DNA of 64,000 nucleotides from a candidate division WWE3 bacterium RIFCSPHIGHO2_01_FULL_40_23 (GTDB lineage Bacteria > Patescibacteriota > WWE3 > UBA101185 > 2-01-FULL-41-18): the NCBI GenBank assembly GCA_001772615.1, contig MEUZ01000003.1, positions 109,698 through 173,697 of the forward strand, written 5' to 3'. Shown one piece after another: positions 52,326 to 64,000 of this stretch. The translations under genes and the position numbers were made by a program. Each line of letters opens with the position of its first letter. Position 1 is the stretch's first letter. The notes below the pieces were generated by a model. The model saw only the letters and a list, made by a program, of their open reading frames with translations, did no database searches and was not told where the DNA came from.

Positions 52326-52410
52326 ATTTCCTCCTAAAATTTTTTACTTGAATTTATATTCTAGACCTTGAATAGATATATATCAATATATGTGCCATTC
52401 CTGCAAGTTT

Positions 52411-52455
52411 GTCATTCCCGCGCTTGCCCGCCCTCTTGGCGGGAAAGCGGGAATC
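52411..52455. repeat. REP-like palindrome with a nested 21-nt palindrome
   Basis: GTCATTCCCGCG[cttgCCCGCCctcttGGCGGG]AAAGCGGGAATC. Confidence 0.7.
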
Positions 52456-52456
52456 T

Positions 52457-52493
52457 AAAAAATGGGGCAGTGCCTGATTTACAAACACTGCCC
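52457..52493 (-). terminator. Intrinsic terminator
   Basis: GGGCAGTG...CACTGCCC stem followed by a T run on the minus strand, downstream of 52510..52728. Confidence 0.6.
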
Positions 52494-55079: not shown

Positions 55080-55115
55080 TGGTGACCCCCCTCAGAGACG
55101 TATTTCGAACACCTT
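55080..55115. repeat. att-like core, copy A (tRNA-Glu 3'-like TGGTGAC...TTCGAA)
   Basis: TGGTGAC plus GACGTATTTCGAACACCTT, which is identical to 56145-56163. Confidence 0.75.
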
Positions 55116-55193
55116 TGCAAGAACCTAGTTCACACATACGAATGTTTAAAAGAGGCATACTTTACGAATTATTACAAAAAAAGTGAGTGAAAA

Positions 55194-55409
55194 CTATTCT
55201 ATATCAAACATATAAGAACATATCAACCTCGCGCTAACGCCAGAGGGAAGATTTACACTTGATCCGCCACACTTGTTAAAATTCCCACCTCTTACAAAAC
55301 AATCTAATTTATATAGAGTGGTTTTTGTCAGACCACCACTAGTACCATAATATACATTTCCCAGAGAATATAGCCATACCCTTAATCCAATCAAAAACAA
55401 AACGACCAA
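55194..55409 (-). CDS. Small membrane/secreted Cys-containing protein (start uncertain)
   Basis: N-terminal TM, three Cys; frame open from 55448. Confidence 0.45.
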   Translation of the reverse strand: MVVLFLIGLRVWLYSLGNVYYGTSGGLTKTTLYKLDCFVRGGNFNKCGGSSVNLPSGVSARLICSYMFDIE

Positions 55410-55448
55410 AGATATCCAGATTAATGGTTTTTTAGCATATTTTATTTT

Positions 55449-55628
55449 CTAGAAATATATGGACTGCTCCTTTAATTCAGAATCCCAGAACCATTTACAG
55501 ACGTCATAATTGCCTGTCCGCTCATTAAATCTGCATCTTCTTAGAAGTGAATTGTTATTTCCAAATATAGGAACTAAACTCAAAAGCAGTAAGATGACAA
55601 GAATCAACAATATAACTAAATACTTCAT
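55449..55628 (-). CDS. Small secreted protein (59 aa, absent from ORF track)
   Basis: MKYLVILLILVILLLLSLVPIFG...CRF...CKW; ATGA overlap with the upstream gene. Confidence 0.6.
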   Translation of the reverse strand: MKYLVILLILVILLLLSLVPIFGNNNSLLRRCRFNERTGNYDVCKWFWDSELKEQSIYF

Positions 55629-55936
55629 AATTTAATCTTTTTATTCCTTAAAACAATACTAACATTAACTAGTACTAAAGAGATTACAAACCAGAATACT
55701 AGATCAATGATCAGATTTTTTCGATCGATGGCTGTACCTCCAGGAGTTAAAATCCTTCCTTCGGAATCATGCATTAATACACCGCCCCCTCGGACAATAT
55801 AGTAGGTGAGAGGAAGCCCTTTTTTACCTGTGCATCCTGCCAAGCAGTCAATCGGGGGTTGAGTGTAAAATGATGGATAAACAAAAATTAACGAAAGAAT
55901 AATAAATAGAGATATTGAGATAAGTATCTTCTTCAC
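55625..55936 (-). CDS. Small 2-TM membrane protein
   Basis: TM-CxxGC-GLP-TM(NLIIDLVFWF); TAGAAT 7 nt before GTG. Confidence 0.7.
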   Translation of the reverse strand: MKKILISISLFIILSLIFVYPSFYTQPPIDCLAGCTGKKGLPLTYYIVRGGGVLMHDSEGRILTPGGTAIDRKNLIIDLVFWFVISLVLVNVSIVLRNKKIKL

Positions 55937-55992
55937 TAATTACATTCTAACACTCGGCTATTAACTAATAAATTACATTTCACAATAGGTAG

Positions 55993-56130
55993 TGGTAACC
56001 CAGAGGGAATTCGGTCACAACTCTCGCTTCGCTCGGTCGCGACCCCGCCTCCTTCGCTGACGCTCAGCCCGGCATTCGAACCCCTGCATGCTGATCTTAA
56101 AGTTTTTCCCTCTGCCAATGGACTACTTGC
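55993..56130 (-). pseudogene. Decayed tRNA copy (Glu-like 3' half) with a 65-nt insertion in the T-loop
   Basis: TGGTAACCCAGAGGGAATTCG[insert]AACCCCTG aligns with the tRNA-Glu 3' end; ATTCG directly repeated around the insert. Confidence 0.6.
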
Positions 56131-56163
56131 TGGTGACTCACAGTGACGTATTTCGAACACCTT
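56131..56163. repeat. att-like core, copy B
   Basis: TGGTGAC plus GACGTATTTCGAACACCTT. Confidence 0.75.
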
Positions 56164-56385
56164 ACCGGCAGCCTAATTCATACCTACGTAAAACTCCAGG
56201 AGCTCGGTTTTACCTACCATAATGTCAATATAGCCGTAATTGAAGACTATGGACAGGAGAATCCCCATGTTTAAGTCCTCTTTGTACGACGAGCTATAGT
56301 CTCTCAAAATATAATATCCACGGCCTCCCGAAAAGGTATATTCAAAACATATTTCTTTACGAGCAAGAAAAATTTTACCAAACCG

Positions 56386-57510
56386 TCAGTTTAAGTCGCC
56401 GCACCAGGCGAGAAATAGTGAATCTGATAAAGGTAAATGACGGATACCGATAGCAAGAGGACGGCCTAAACGTAGATTTTGGAGAGAAATATTCAGAATT
56501 GTTTCTGATTTTCCAGGGGCAGAATTGGTTTTAAGTCCGTTAATCACTTCTGTTAAGGGATACGCTACCAATCCAATGGCAAGGCAAGACCCCTTATAAA
56601 TATTTGCGGGTGGTTTTCCAGCCATAAAGTCTAATTGAATCACAATTTTTGTTTTTTCATTGCCTAGATCAGTAAGTGTCGCAATACTCACACCATTTCC
56701 TTCTCCGCTGTTTTGAGGGGTTAAGGGTATATAATATGTATCGTTTGTAAAAGTTTTCAAATTTTCAGCAACATATGGTGTTTGGGATATGTCAGGCGTT
56801 TCAGTTGAAGTAGTTGAAGTATTTGATCTCCACTGAAAAGTTCTCAATATTGTATCTGTTTCTTTAAAGAAATCAGCATAAAGACTGACGGGTGTCCAGC
56901 CCTCAACCTCTGCTTTTATTTGGTGTAAATAATTTATACAAATCTGTTTTTTGGTAATGTCAAGCAAGTCGCATCTGATCCTTTCGACGACAGGCTTGGA
57001 GAGTACAAAAGTGAGATCCTTATTTTTATCGGTAATAAGATCTATTGACGTGACTCTTTGACTTCCCACCACACTTGTGCGGCTTATTACATTGTTGTCC
57101 ATGTTGATCACCAACATGTCTTTTGATACTGGACCTTGATCCATGGAGGTTTCATCCACCCACGTGTCAGTTTTTGTATTATAGATTGATCGGGAAAGTT
57201 GACCAGAAAATTGTATATCTTCGATACCTTTAACGAGGGTAATTGTTGCAACGCTCAAATATTTTATGTCTGCCTCAGTAAATAATTTAGGGGTTATGAG
57301 AAATTTTTCTAGACATACTCCGTTAAATTTGTTATCGCAATCAGTTTTCGTAATAGAGAAACTGTTTGGCACCTGAAAAGAATAACCGTACGTATCGCTT
57401 CTATAAGTGTCGACAATTTGATTTTTACCCTGATTCAGTCCGGTCAAATAAATAATTCTAGCTATACATAACAATGCAAAAGCGCTGATAATTAAAATTA
57501 CTTTTTTCAT
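56386..57510 (-). CDS. Secreted/membrane-anchored protein: PsbP-like N-terminal region and CHRD/Cu-Zn-SOD-like C-terminal domain
   Basis: Likely start MKKVILII at 57510; YGYSFQVP; PANIYKGSC...YPLT...SET...CGDL. Confidence 0.6.
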   Translation of the reverse strand: MKKVILIISAFALLCIARIIYLTGLNQGKNQIVDTYRSDTYGYSFQVPNSFSITKTDCDNKFNGVCLEKFLITPKLFTEADIKYLSVATITLVKGIEDIQFSGQLSRSIYNTKTDTWVDETSMDQGPVSKDMLVINMDNNVISRTSVVGSQRVTSIDLITDKNKDLTFVLSKPVVERIRCDLLDITKKQICINYLHQIKAEVEGWTPVSLYADFFKETDTILRTFQWRSNTSTTSTETPDISQTPYVAENLKTFTNDTYYIPLTPQNSGEGNGVSIATLTDLGNEKTKIVIQLDFMAGKPPANIYKGSCLAIGLVAYPLTEVINGLKTNSAPGKSETILNISLQNLRLGRPLAIGIRHLPLSDSLFLAWCGDLN

Positions 57511-57596
57511 ATTTCTAAGTTCGCTTATTAGCGGTTTGCTTCTTTGGTGCACTGGTGGGGGGAACAGCAACCCTACCTCTTTTGTGATTTCCAAAA

Positions 57597-57673
57597 TGGT
57601 GACCCTGGGGGGATTCGAACCCCCGGTCTTCGCCCTGAGAAGGCGACGTCCTAAACCGCTAGACGACAGGGCC
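57597..57673 (-). tRNA. tRNA-Glu (CTC)
   Basis: GGCCCTG/CAGGGTC acceptor stem, TCGCC-TTCTCAG-GGCGA anticodon arm, GGTTCGAATCC, encoded CCA. Confidence 0.97.
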
Positions 57674-57696
57674 ACAAAACCCACTTCTGCTTCATG

Positions 57697-57735
57697 GGAT
57701 CCCCACTTTCGTGGGGATGACGGTGCGACCGTCAT
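57697..57735. repeat. REP-like palindrome and hairpin in the tRNA-Glu leader
   Basis: GGATCCCCAC-TTTC-GTGGGGATGAC, overlapping ATGACGGT-gcg-ACCGTCAT. Confidence 0.65.
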
Positions 57736-60479: not shown

Positions 60480-62369
60480 TTATAGTAACACAGAAATTAA
60501 GGCTGTAAAAAGCGGCACATGGTAAAATGACAACCAAAGCATTGTTGTCATCCCGGATCTCAAACATTGGGGGGTCGTATAACGGTAGTACAGCGCCCTC
60601 TGGAGGCGTTTATCGGGGTTCGAATCCCTGCCCCCCAGCCATGAAAAACTGGCAGCTTGTAGGACATTGGTATTTGTTACAGCATCAATACTTTTTTCAG
60701 GTTCGAACTTTGTAACGACATTTTGAATTGTATCCTTTCCCTTCTCTATCAAATACCATGCTTTTTCCCCGTCAATATGTAATTTTCTGTCCTTAATAAA
60801 TAGGTTCGAACCAAGTGCGTTTAGTATTGCAACTTTAGTTTTCGCATCTCCATTAGCAAACCAGTAACGGGCATAACATGCGAAATCAAATGCACGAGTT
60901 GACGTTTCCAACCAAGTATTTTGTCGTGTGCTTAGCTTTTGTTTTTCCACCAAAAGCGCTTCCTTTTCGCTCAATAACGATACTTTTTGTTTGTTCAATT
61001 CGTCTGGCGTTAATAATACGTGTGTAGTATTTTGAGGTGAAATATACAGTTTTGTAAGGTTATCAATCCTGCTTTCCACATCCTTAAGTGCAGAATTGAT
61101 ATTACTGCTTATTATCAGTCTATCGGTAAATTCAACATCTGTTAATTCGTTTAGGTATTTTATTGCCCAATCACGCAAGCGGGTAGATATTTCTATTTTC
61201 TTTAGTGCAAAATCTACAGTATTTTCCAGCTCCTTCAACGTTAAACTACCCTCGGTGCAGGAAGGAGTGGTTTTACCAGCACAGACGTAGTAAATATAAT
61301 GCAATATCTTCTTATGTTTCATATTTTCGATTAAAGTGCCGCAAGCAGAGCAGGCTTTCCTGGTTTTAGTTAATGCGAATTTATTCTTACAATCGCATAT
61401 AATTTGCAATTTTTCCTCAAATGTAATGCTGCCTCCGCAACCACCGCATCTTAATGCCTTTTTGAAAATACCCTCTTTTTTAGACGTAGGCGATTTTACA
61501 GTCTTACCTAGAATAATTTGTATTTTTTCAAATTCTTCTTTGCTAATCATTTTTTTATGATTACCCCAACCTTCAACTAATTTTCCGTCTACGACACGTA
61601 CCATCCAACCATAATAAAACGGGTCTGATACTATGCGATAGAAAGAACTTTTAGATAGAGGTCTGCCGCCTTGTCTTGCTGTTCTTCTCGTACGATAGCC
61701 CCATACATTATTTAGAAGCTCCAAAACCTCCATCCTGGTATAGTTTCCAGTTAAAAGTAGTTGTAACGCCTTGCTTAATAATCCCCATTGTTTTTCATCA
61801 ATATCGATGTACTTTTCTTTTGTGATCGGATTTTCCTTGTTTATGTATCCTGGCTTGGCGAATCCTGCCCATTCCTTTTGCTCGAAAAACTTTTCTTTAT
61901 TACCTCGCCGTACAGCATCCGATTTATCATCCGAGTCCCGAGTTGCACGTGTAAACTCCTGCATCAGGTATTCTTTATCTCTGCCTGTGTTTTCATAAAT
62001 TGCATGAGGTGTTATTACATAGCTTAGAAGCCCATCAGACATAAGTTGAACAAATTCGCCGCCTTCTTTATAATTCCTGTTGAGCCGATTAGCATGCCAA
62101 CATAAAACAACTTGGACTTTACCCGTTTTGATTTCTTCGATCAATTTTCTGTAGTCTTTTCTTCCCGTTTCAAATGCCGAGGCTTTTTCTTCATAATCGG
62201 ATGTAATCTTAAGATCATATCTATCTATAATTTGCTCGTGAATGTCTGCATTTTGCCCAGGTAATGATCTTATTTGCTTGTCTTCCGCATCCTTTGTGGA
62301 TTTACGTTTATAACAGCTTATGCCTAAGGTTTTTATTTCTTCAATTAGTTCAGGGCTAAAATAAGCCAT
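60480..62369 (-). CDS. Large serine recombinase (resolvase-recombinase-zinc ribbon-coiled coil); C-terminus encoded antisense to tRNA-Gln
   Basis: YKRKST catalytic Ser, NRLNRN, PFYYG, CGGCG/YYVC, WLGGRDSNP. Confidence 0.93.
   Translation of the reverse strand: MAYFSPELIEEIKTLGISCYKRKSTKDAEDKQIRSLPGQNADIHEQIIDRYDLKITSDYEEKASAFETGRKDYRKLIEEIKTGKVQVVLCWHANRLNRNYKEGGEFVQLMSDGLLSYVITPHAIYENTGRDKEYLMQEFTRATRDSDDKSDAVRRGNKEKFFEQKEWAGFAKPGYINKENPITKEKYIDIDEKQWGLLSKALQLLLTGNYTRMEVLELLNNVWGYRTRRTARQGGRPLSKSSFYRIVSDPFYYGWMVRVVDGKLVEGWGNHKKMISKEEFEKIQIILGKTVKSPTSKKEGIFKKALRCGGCGGSITFEEKLQIICDCKNKFALTKTRKACSACGTLIENMKHKKILHYIYYVCAGKTTPSCTEGSLTLKELENTVDFALKKIEISTRLRDWAIKYLNELTDVEFTDRLIISSNINSALKDVESRIDNLTKLYISPQNTTHVLLTPDELNKQKVSLLSEKEALLVEKQKLSTRQNTWLETSTRAFDFACYARYWFANGDAKTKVAILNALGSNLFIKDRKLHIDGEKAWYLIEKGKDTIQNVVTKFEPEKSIDAVTNTNVLQAASFSWLGGRDSNPDKRLQRALYYRYTTPQCLRSGMTTMLWLSFYHVPLFTALISVLL
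60568..60641 (+). tRNA. tRNA-Gln (CTG)
   Basis: TGGGGGG/CCCCCCA acceptor stem, GCGCC-CTCTGGA-GGCGT anticodon arm, GGTTCGAATCC, CCA. Confidence 0.97.
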
Positions 62370-62413
62370 AATTCCTTATATAAAAACGTATGGGCAGTTG
62401 AAATAAATATGTA

Positions 62414-62632
62414 TTAAACGTTACTTACATTATTATCGCAGAATTTGCCTTTTATGTTCAAATTTTCTGTTGCAATCGGTTTATAAATCAGGCTGAACAG
62501 TTGTAAAAATTCCATAGCCTTTTTTTCCACATCGGAATCGTCAAAATTTATACCGTAATCTTGTTTACATATTTCCTTAAATGCACTTAAAGCCTCGGGA
62601 CTTAATGATCTTCTTAAAGACTCTTTTTTCAT
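62414..62632 (-). CDS. Small helical protein directly upstream of the LSR (possible directionality/accessory factor)
   Basis: LSPEALSAFKEICKQDYGI...A.EFLQLF.LIYKPI. Confidence 0.7.
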   Translation of the reverse strand: MKKESLRRSLSPEALSAFKEICKQDYGINFDDSDVEKKAMEFLQLFSLIYKPIATENLNIKGKFCDNNVSNV

Positions 62633-62787
62633 CAGTCCACCCCAACATCTGGTAGGAATTCTTTAATTGCATATTCAACAAGTTCCTTGATTGACTTTTC
62701 TTCTGCTGCGGCAAGTCTCTTTAAGTCTTTATGCAGTTTAGAATCAATTCTTATTAACTTGGTATCCTTTTTTAACTTATTACGCAT
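62632..62787 (-). CDS. Ribbon-helix-helix DNA-binding protein (51 aa, absent from ORF track)
   Basis: MRNKLKKDTKLIRIDSKLHKDLKRLAAAEEKSIKELVEYAIKEFL; TGA overlaps the next ATG. Confidence 0.8.
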   Translation of the reverse strand: MRNKLKKDTKLIRIDSKLHKDLKRLAAAEEKSIKELVEYAIKEFLPDVGVD

Positions 62788-62811
62788 AGTAAACTTATTT
62801 ACCTTAAAAAA

Positions 62812-62977
62812 CCTCCAACCCCCTCTAGTTACCTGGTCTATCCTCTATGAACAGAGCTACCCCCTCCTGGAATGCTGTCCAGGTCATCAGGTTAATTCAT
62901 GTCGGATGAGCCAGCTACGATTAAGAGTCCTCTTAGTGGCACACATTGGTGGGACTAGGTATCGTAGAACCTCTACG
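62812..62977. ncRNA. Candidate structured non-coding element
   Basis: GC-enriched intergenic segment with several nested hairpins. Confidence 0.35.
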
Positions 62978-63046
62978 TTTTTAGATTAGATTTATTTTTG
63001 ACGGGATACTATGGTAATAATTATCTTAAATTTATCCTCAATTATT

Positions 63047-63691
63047 CTATGAGGTTATAGGTAGCGGGTTAAATTTGTAGCCTCTGCCTCGTACGTTAAT
63101 AAACATCTCGGTTAGCATTTCTTTGGGTACACCCACCCCCTGTAGAATTTTTAACATCCTTAATTTGATTTTATGAATTACCAGGGTCTTGTCCGTATCT
63201 GTATAAGCATTAAGGTCAAGAAGTCTATCAATCTCCTCAAAAGTTAATAATTCCCCAGGTTTACTAAAATGATGGATGAGAAGTCTGTCGGGATTATTAT
63301 TTATACTTAAATCTGCCCATTTATTTTTATAACTAATTTTGGCGTTAAAGGCATCTAAAACTAAAGCCCCGTACTTATATAAGCCTTCGGATTCGTGGTT
63401 GACAACACAAGCCTTAAGTTTAGCTAAGTTTATATTTTTAACCCAAATATGCTCCGTACCTAACTGTACGAACGTAAAACAAGTATCGTTATTTGCCGCA
63501 CTCGTACAAATATCATCAACGACAGCTTTAGTTGCACCTGTTTTTTTGTTAAGGAATCTTTTATAAGGAATTTTTAGTGAGTCTACCTTTTTTAATGCGG
63601 TGGCTTGCTCAAAAACAGAAAACAAAATTTCTTTTCTAAGCTCTAAAAGATCTGCCTTATTATAAACAAAATTGCCCGTATTTTCTTCCAT
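63047..63691 (-). CDS. Protein with C-terminal OmpR/PhoB-type winged helix
   Basis: PGELLTFEEI...VIHKIK...INVRGRGYKF; likely start is ATG 63691. Confidence 0.6.
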   Translation of the reverse strand: MEENTGNFVYNKADLLELRKEILFSVFEQATALKKVDSLKIPYKRFLNKKTGATKAVVDDICTSAANNDTCFTFVQLGTEHIWVKNINLAKLKACVVNHESEGLYKYGALVLDAFNAKISYKNKWADLSINNNPDRLLIHHFSKPGELLTFEEIDRLLDLNAYTDTDKTLVIHKIKLRMLKILQGVGVPKEMLTEMFINVRGRGYKFNPLPITS

Positions 63692-63723
63692 AAAATTGCG
63701 GGCAGTAAATAAGTTACTTTTTC

Positions 63724-64000
63724 TTAAATTTTTTTGTACAAGAGAGGTAATCCGTTGTGGGTGTCTGGGACTCCCGACACCCAACTCTCTACCGCTATTT
63801 TACTCTTTTTACGATTAAACTTAACATACACTTTTGAATTACGGGTGTTGTTATTAAGTCTATCCTTGTCAAAGTAACCTTTCAGGGTAAATATGAGCTG
63901 TAACGCACGAAGACGTACAGACCAATCGGCTTCTGTTTTACCTGCCCCCCTAACAGTTCTGGTCGCCTCCAAGGCGTTTTTTAGCATTGTTACGAGTTCC
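63724..64000 (-). CDS. C-terminal part of a protein resembling phage terminase small subunit-like proteins
   Basis: ALEAT...ADWSVRLRALQLIFTLKG; 5' end outside the window. Confidence 0.4.
   Translation of the reverse strand, partial: ELVTMLKNALEATRTVRGAGKTEADWSVRLRALQLIFTLKGYFDKDRLNNNTRNSKVYVKFNRKKSKIAVESWVSGVPDTHNGLPLLYKKI

Follow-up and report, generated by a model that had tools for sequence, protein, structure and literature searches.

The tandem array at positions 55080 to 57673 of the window, i.e., of the whole 64,000-nucleotide stretch of contig MEUZ01000003.1 analysed here, lies at the 3' end of the tRNA-Glu(CTC) gene of a candidate division WWE3 bacterium (RIFCSPHIGHO2_01_FULL_40_23), the genome of which comprises 1.01 Mb in 8 contigs, is 99% complete and uses genetic code 11. 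With a probability of about 0.76, its two units are the immobile remnants of two successive integrations of a Patescibacteria family of integrative and conjugative or integrative and mobilizable elements (ICE/IME) at this tRNA 3' end, each ending in the split-off tail of a serine-integrase gene. An earlier note, made from the sequence alone, had described the locus as an integron-like series of integrase-free cassettes between four co-oriented tRNA-like cores. The four sites were confirmed, with TGGTGAC at 55080, 56131 and 57597 and TGGTAAC at 55993, and the two units, estimated at about 0.9 and 1.5 kb, measure 913 and 1466 bp; neither of them holds a recombinase, large serine recombinase (LSR) or otherwise, or a transfer gene. 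However, the four cores are not of one type but of three kinds, namely, the tRNA itself, two attachment (att) stubs of an LSR element, and one member of a separate hairpin repeat family:

55080..55190, plus strand: far-end att stub 1, with the TGGTGA core, and, at 55104, a TTCGAAC motif resembling a T-loop (position 25, compared with 23 in intact ends); the LSR C-terminal tail is cut short to 34 codons (tail profile E 5.5e-16; DNA alignment to intact ends over 92-110 nt; spacing).
55993..56130, minus strand: tRNA-3'-duplicating hairpin repeat, with a decayed copy of the last 20 nt of tRNA-Glu (16/20 matches), a GC-rich T-loop insertion and a spacer, in a layout common to 7 other tRNAs; not an LSR att stub.
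56131..56274, plus strand: far-end att stub 2, with the TGGTGA core and, at 56152, the TTCGAAC motif (position 22); the LSR C-terminal tail is complete at 45 codons (tail profile E 1e-21; 75% identical at the DNA level to the end of the G052 element over 124 nt).
56267..56299, plus strand: first ten codons of the parent PLD-like gene (MFKSSLYDEL, then a stop), the homology to the parent stopping near 56293-56304 (tblastx and blastn to G052; local alignment).
57597-57673, minus strand: tRNA-Glu(CTC), the integration target (ARAGORN).

The conserved orphan peptide of the earlier note proved to be a real frame with homologues, but not an orphan. Judged from sequence comparison, it comes from an LSR gene that extends across the att site, and is the C-terminus detached when integration cuts this gene, because the tail is found at the far end of related elements in the frame of their LSR, and because the LSR end and the tail stand in one frame in the database proteins P0011 (partial) and P0114 (584 aa). 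A profile built from the two tails retrieved homologues in other genomes and 29 proteins among 1.84 billion, 26 of which were short proteins with the motif. The comparison set comprised 134 genomes of the same class, the host among them and none of the others of the same genus (G000 denotes the host genome, C1, C3 and the like its contigs or those of the other genomes, and G001 and the other G numbers the compared genomes); an improved tail profile was positive in 8 of the 134, the host included, and 6 of the 7 other tail-bearing genomes also carry the parent LSR family, which is present in 12 of the 134. This family counts 1692 proteins at E<=1e-50 among 7075 candidates, and the targets seen are tRNA-Glu, -Gln, -Ser and -Arg; among its 120 best matches the tail is attached in a single one, P0114. 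Two further weak tail matches (G341 and G490 C22), both unplaced, came from a phylum sample of 400 genomes, and nothing was retrieved by a word-based protein search with the tail or by its alignment with viral contigs. The coding origin of the peptide is accepted because the homologues exist, and not because of the codon test on the two window copies, which alone was not significant (P 0.07 for identities, P 0.42 for synonymous changes). Within the genome, the peptide-bearing cores 55080 and 56131 have 48 nt in common at 79% (E 8e-4), the tRNA and the cores only 6-9 nt, and a loose core-plus-motif pattern was found 3 times genome-wide against 0.9 expected per shuffle, i.e., not clearly above chance. 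Read-through of the TGA in the core was considered and rejected, as the long open reading frames (ORFs) of the host end in TGA 111 times and the intact ends use another frame.

The intact relatives of the two stubs were found in seven genomes (G006, G011, G012, G052, G056, G094 and G490). In each of these far ends a TGG core comes first, then the T-loop-like motif (position 23) and the tail, with which a PLD-like gene overlaps; this gene matched Pfam PLDc_2 in G006, G012 and G056, the three ends on which Pfam was run. At G006 C14:187500-188600 (L088) and at similar ends, the stop codon of the tail overlaps the start of the PLD-like gene; excision into a circle would be required to bring this gene and the small one that follows into the LSR operon. 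The LSR and the tail lie on one contig in four elements, those of G006 (27,854 bp), G012 (32,373 bp), G094 (21,945 bp) and G490 (22,721 bp), in all of which the LSR enters the 3' end of a tRNA-Glu, -Gln or -Ser gene in antisense orientation, and a Replic_Relax protein and a coupling protein are encoded; in G006, G012 and G490 the frame of the LSR at the tRNA is that of the tail at the far end. A VirB4-like ATPase is located near the tail in G006, G011 and G052, together with PrgI and pilins in G006. The G006 element occupies the syntenic tRNA-Glu(CTC), the same locus as the window array, and G052 has a 71%-identical LSR at tRNA-Glu(CTC). The window DNA from 56131 tracks the G052 end through the whole tail and into the PLD-like gene. 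By these alignments, 55080 and 56131 are each recognized as a cut-short far end of the parent element, and the earlier idea that they are integration junctions, formed serially at the 3' end of tRNA-Glu by tRNA-targeting serine-recombinase elements, is supported.

The parent end is, however, retained to a different extent at each site. Homology of stub 1 to the intact ends is lost inside the tail, and stub 2 stops ten codons into the PLD-like gene. A third stub, some 33 bp long and again from this LSR family, was found at C3:2082-2114 behind tRNA-Glu(TTC), 310 bp from the tRNA and with a 61-aa ORF between, and a fourth, of 84 nt, in G100, where it closes a 1224-bp integrase-free unit at tRNA-Glu(CTC). 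The lengths of the four integrase-free stubs are, thus, ~33, 84, 92-110 and 162-174 bp, a five-fold spread, and all four are damaged: the motif spacing in the window is off by +2 and -1 from that of the seven intact ends, the G100 stub has a motif change and stops, and the core at C3:2114 is altered. The G100 locus (C52:257-4000, L117) parallels the window independently: tRNA-Glu(CTC) is present there as two complete copies separated by 3.7 kb, the distal one is preceded by a short LSR end, and the damaged stub of the tail is accompanied by cargo on the minus strand. Beside the window tRNA-Glu, nothing was found by a profile built from 11 LSR C-termini, which does pick up the short LSR end of G100 (E 0.003). 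The 45 nt next to the tRNA-Glu matched 6 intact arms no better than shuffles did (p 0.71 and 0.30), whereas 5 of the 6 intact arms recognized each other at p<0.002; the test is weak, since one of the real arms, that of G011 C2, reached no more than p 0.03 and 0.23. Minimal cassettes that purposely keep both att arms are not supported; what is seen is a mis-spaced far-end arm and a tRNA-side arm undetected by a profile and a DNA test of limited power. The units are predicted not to excise, because one arm is missing and the other is mis-spaced.

A course of events consistent with these data may be outlined as follows. The LSR would recombine at a core of about six nucleotides, TGGTGA, and would probably read the tRNA T-loop TTCGAAC as the zinc-ribbon motif of attB, the corresponding attP motif standing 5 bp further out. 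Element 1 would have integrated and decayed first; with the hairpin repeat lying directly behind the tRNA, element 2 would have inserted itself between these two before decaying in its turn. Deletions would have taken away the LSR together with the arm on its tRNA side, as well as the transfer genes.

The site at 55993 belongs to a set of repeats of 125-192 bp that are located directly behind 7 other host tRNAs, i.e., Ala(CGC), Ile(TAT), Cys, Phe, Leu(TAG), Tyr and Arg(TCG), with partial members at two tRNA-Ser genes, each of the seven holding a 20/20 copy of the tRNA 3' end around a GC-rich T-loop insertion; an apparent eighth row at tRNA-Gly was dropped, being the neighbouring tRNA-Thr. The copies duplicate the last 20-21 nt of the adjacent tRNA, and the 55993 copy aligns with the tRNA-Arg copy over 54 nt at 93%. 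It is abutted by the 56131 core instead of a tRNA; since this core stands in the place of the tRNA after the repeat, element 2 appears to have integrated between repeat and tRNA, which would make unit 2 younger than the repeat and 56131 a true junction. No Rfam match was obtained for 55993-56130 (fold z -0.68), and its interpretation as a tRNA-Leu/Glu chimera was dropped after alignment with the repeat family, Rfam and folding giving a tRNA no support. Contigs of other organisms in the read sets also match the repeat. It is a better candidate than the window units for a truly minimal non-autonomous element, and no published description of it was found in a literature search confined to main texts and to few subscription papers.

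The genes between the sites are described by the following features, none of which gave a Pfam or NCBIfam match:

55194..55409, minus strand: cargo ORF of 71 aa from TTG, with a hydrophobic N-terminus; the nearest upstream ATG is out of frame, and the gene is possibly damaged.
55449..55628, minus strand: cargo ORF of 59 aa with an N-terminal hydrophobic helix.
55625..55936, minus strand: cargo ORF of 103 aa with two hydrophobic stretches; only its own cluster was found.
56386..57510, minus strand: cargo gene of 374 aa with an N-terminal hydrophobic anchor.

All four lie on the minus strand and begin with a hydrophobic stretch, in agreement with the small secreted or membrane proteins of the earlier note, and may have survived as cargo of the elements or have reached this hotspot only later. 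The 374-aa gene has a broken paralogue (72% nt) downstream of the other tRNA-Glu of the host, at C3:5824-6926, and its best Atlas score, 0.81, is a lead only. The surroundings of this paralogue (G000 C3:5626-6987) contain two tRNA-like sequences not called by ARAGORN, one of them with a tRNA-Glu 3' end, then the paralogue, and then a weak att-like site, possibly due to chance. Promoter-like sites in the array numbered 11, with 8.1 +/- 3.2 expected.

On its 5' side, the tRNA-Glu(CTC) locus is syntenic in G001, G002 and G028 (a 145-aa gene, VanW-like, NYN), and the 3' side is different in each; the downstream genes there are unrelated and without repeats, and these loci are uninformative on the gain or loss of the units. 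In the window, the segments 52408-52459 and 57694-57722 belong to a family of short, GC-rich palindromic repeats of which the genome has many copies. Beyond stub 1, the segment 52882-54995 comprises an ORF with a weak nucleotidyltransferase-head match, below the cut-off, and a membrane protein gene at 28% GC, and is probably older foreign DNA at the same hotspot.

The LSR that had been proposed to mobilize the units in trans belongs to a neighbouring island:

60480..62369, minus strand: LSR of a separate island at tRNA-Gln(CTG), alike in split-gene geometry and distant in family (Pfam Resolvase and Recombinase).
60568-60641, plus strand: tRNA-Gln(CTG) (ARAGORN).

The island measures 8261 bp and lies in 60480-64000 and beyond the window end, up to C3:178599, with the LSR tail in frame at its far end and the motif 5 bp further out, as in the intact ends. 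The matching geometry was correctly noted, but the protein aligns with the G006 LSR at 25% over 149 aa only and has a tail of its own, and by this distance it is not of the parent family and not the cognate enzyme of the window units. No parent-family LSR that could act in trans was found in the host genome at E<=1e-40, the three resident LSRs being only ~22-25% alike to the parent LSR over partial lengths. By eye, the island includes a methylase-like and a restriction-like ORF. Further LSRs reading into tRNA 3' ends are situated at C3:32613-34127 (Val) and C1:145016-146533 (a partial Asn copy).

Sequence and read searches added little to the distribution of the array. An exact 19-mer from the earlier note had 2 matches in genome contigs, both labelled Bacteroidota. 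The degenerate core-plus-tail pattern yielded 3 viral matches, all in one unrelated phage gene, and 21 metagenome matches, one being an identical copy of the window and the other 20 looking unrelated on inspection; the core-plus-motif pattern had 3 other matches in the 134 class genomes, none of them a tail. A separate metagenome contig is 100% identical over 55572-56698, and overlapping contigs from three runs span the array without differences, though both may stem from the source samples. The circular junctions expected by the earlier note did not appear: no core-to-core excision joint was present in the contigs of the 8 runs, out of 19, that were covered, a level at which rare circles could be missed. 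A joint of 56085 to 57597 in two runs had short sides of 27-29 nt and unknown filler, with the cores not joined, and a joint from 55154 had a 21-nt side; both probably come from other organisms. Runs with about half the words reflect low coverage and not variants lacking a unit, and the tRNA-Gln island is uncovered in three runs, which proves nothing.

Several observations weigh against the reading of the units as decayed remnants. The ancestral locus and the deletion steps are unobserved, the comparison having no same-genus genome, and rare circles are invisible in contig-level data. No intact element was found to contain any of the cargo genes, and the full-length homologue of the 374-aa gene exists only in the host genome. 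Both window tails are free of stops; the arm DNA test is weak, and a short binding motif could be missed by it; keeping the cargo while losing both flanks takes two deletions per unit; and the tidy layout of tRNA, sense-strand cargo and stub recurs in G100 and at the other tRNA-Glu of the host. This recurrence, counted as three places in the host and one in G100, would also suit the original model, in which minimal non-autonomous cassettes retain both att arms and are mobilized in trans, one at a time, by LSRs that target tRNAs, as a serine-recombinase analogue of an integron, and so would the presence of the 374-aa cargo family behind both tRNA-Glu genes and of a split-gene LSR island only 3 kb away. 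Nevertheless, such a model supposes a fixed minimal layout with conserved breakpoints, and the observed ends vary, one of them falling inside an element gene; the stubs are damaged in four cases out of four, the tRNA-side arm is undetected, the cognate LSR was not found, and the 55993 boundary is a different repeat. Among 13 proteins within and around the array, Pfam matched no IntI-type tyrosine recombinase. What was encountered is the very condition that the note had named as contrary to its proposal, full-size islands eroded to variable ends: full-size parents exist and stub lengths differ. The integron analogue is very unlikely.

The units may, alternatively, qualify fully as cis-mobilizable elements (CIMEs): after integrating at the tRNA, an ICE that belongs to the same LSR family would sometimes excise with the old stub as its far end and take the cargo along. 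Such cis-mobilization with gene capture is established for streptococcal ICEs (PMC5704250) and proposed for the Dehalococcoides ssrA islands (PMC3146451), as far as the parts of these papers considered here go; it needs the far-end arm only, which is just the arm retained, the LSR family does target this tRNA in G006 and G052, and stub 2 preserves the motif and an open tail. The spacing deviates in both stubs from that of all seven intact ends, however, the intact elements lack the cargo genes, and the corresponding joint is missing from the contigs of the 8 runs, so that this explanation is unlikely. A broader proposal, doubtful though not negligible, would take the stubs for working pick-up sites and tRNA 3' ends for loading docks of a widespread Patescibacteria family of split-LSR conjugative elements, where visits can leave surface-protein genes and a later visitor excises to the old stub and carries them off; bacteria of the candidate phyla radiation (CPR) would exchange surface genes in this way, by an integron-like relay without a resident integrase. 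Finally, the loose pattern count and the insignificant codon test would be compatible with a chance resemblance to a tRNA end; the profile E-values of both tails and the PLD-like gene start that follows in place speak against it, as the identical metagenome contig and the three-run contigs, possibly from the source samples, do against misassembly, and either of these is scarcely credible. The preferred reading remains that of two integrations followed by decay.

Integrons have the tyrosine recombinase IntI, with attI next to the array, attC sites folding into bottom-strand hairpins, a common promoter from which the cassettes are expressed, and arrays of small co-oriented integrase-free units with recombination-site-like borders. 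The window array resembles them in its small co-oriented integrase-free units with such borders; unlike integrons, it has no IntI, its borders are pieces of a lost LSR gene, and there is neither evidence of attC-type sites nor cassette traffic shown. The parent family shares with the phage-type large serine integrases a motif whose distance in the element arm exceeds that in the target by 5 bp (23 against 18 in the tRNA, in 7/7 intact ends, and likewise in the tRNA-Gln island), which corresponds to the LI/A118 model, as presented in the portion of the source used, of a zinc-ribbon-domain motif 5 bp further from the crossover in attP than in attB (PMC3783163). Unlike LI/A118, the predicted motif here is the tRNA T-loop, tentatively assigned as the zinc-ribbon motif, and the att site lies inside the integrase gene.

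A close parallel is offered by the Dehalococcoides ssrA islands (DsiB). According to McMurdie et al. 2011 (PMC3146451), the att site and the gene of the serine recombinase overlap there, the variable LSR C-terminus is suggested to be complete only on the circle or behind a neighbouring island, and 15 of the islands, which have no integration module, are read as cis-mobilizable or fixed. Both systems have an LSR gene overlapping an att site at the 3' end of a tRNA-like gene, and tandem islands; the LSR spanning the att site with its tail at the far end is found in the parent family, and the ssrA target and the DsiA/DsiB module are not. Their target is tmRNA with a 20-bp repeat, whereas here it is tRNA-Glu with a core of ~6 nt; the parent elements here have a relaxase, a coupling protein and sometimes VirB4, and the module genes differ, as judged from the ORF lists. 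With the Tycheposon islands of Prochlorococcus (bioRxiv 10.1101/2020.12.28.424599), in the sections of the preprint compared, the array shares serial integration at tRNAs, partial tRNA copies between elements, and degenerated remnants among island genes; 910 of 937 Tycheposon elements use tyrosine recombinases, and no split integrase is described in those sections.

In the passage of the Islander paper concerned (PMC4383910, 2014), serine integrases were stated not to be known to target tRNA genes; the main text of Durrant et al. (PMC10083194) does not contain the word tRNA; and a 2025 survey (PMC12102498), in the text available, reports few relaxases near virB4 in Patescibacteria, with no mention there of integrases or tRNAs. 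The same literature search as above found no published tRNA-targeting split-gene LSR elements in Patescibacteria. The array points to a large LSR family integrating at tRNA 3' ends and to Patescibacteria elements of the ICE/IME type with defined bounds. Where the tRNA repeat is too short to be caught by standard finders, the 45-codon tail can serve in practice to mark island ends, and tRNA-targeting serine integrases could putatively serve as insertion tools.

The founding streptococcal CIME cases use tyrosine integrases. With CIMEs, the window units have in common the loss of integration and transfer genes, an ICE/IME parent at the same site, and the tandem position at the target 3' end; they are not filed as CIMEs because both att sites are not shown, CIMEs keeping attL and attR, unlike the single damaged far-end arm seen here (PMC5704250, in the part consulted). 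As in the tandem accretion described in that source, integration, decay to an integrase-free unit, and a new integration at the same end of the target gene lead to a tandem array, and the array in the window is a decayed hotspot of this known kind.

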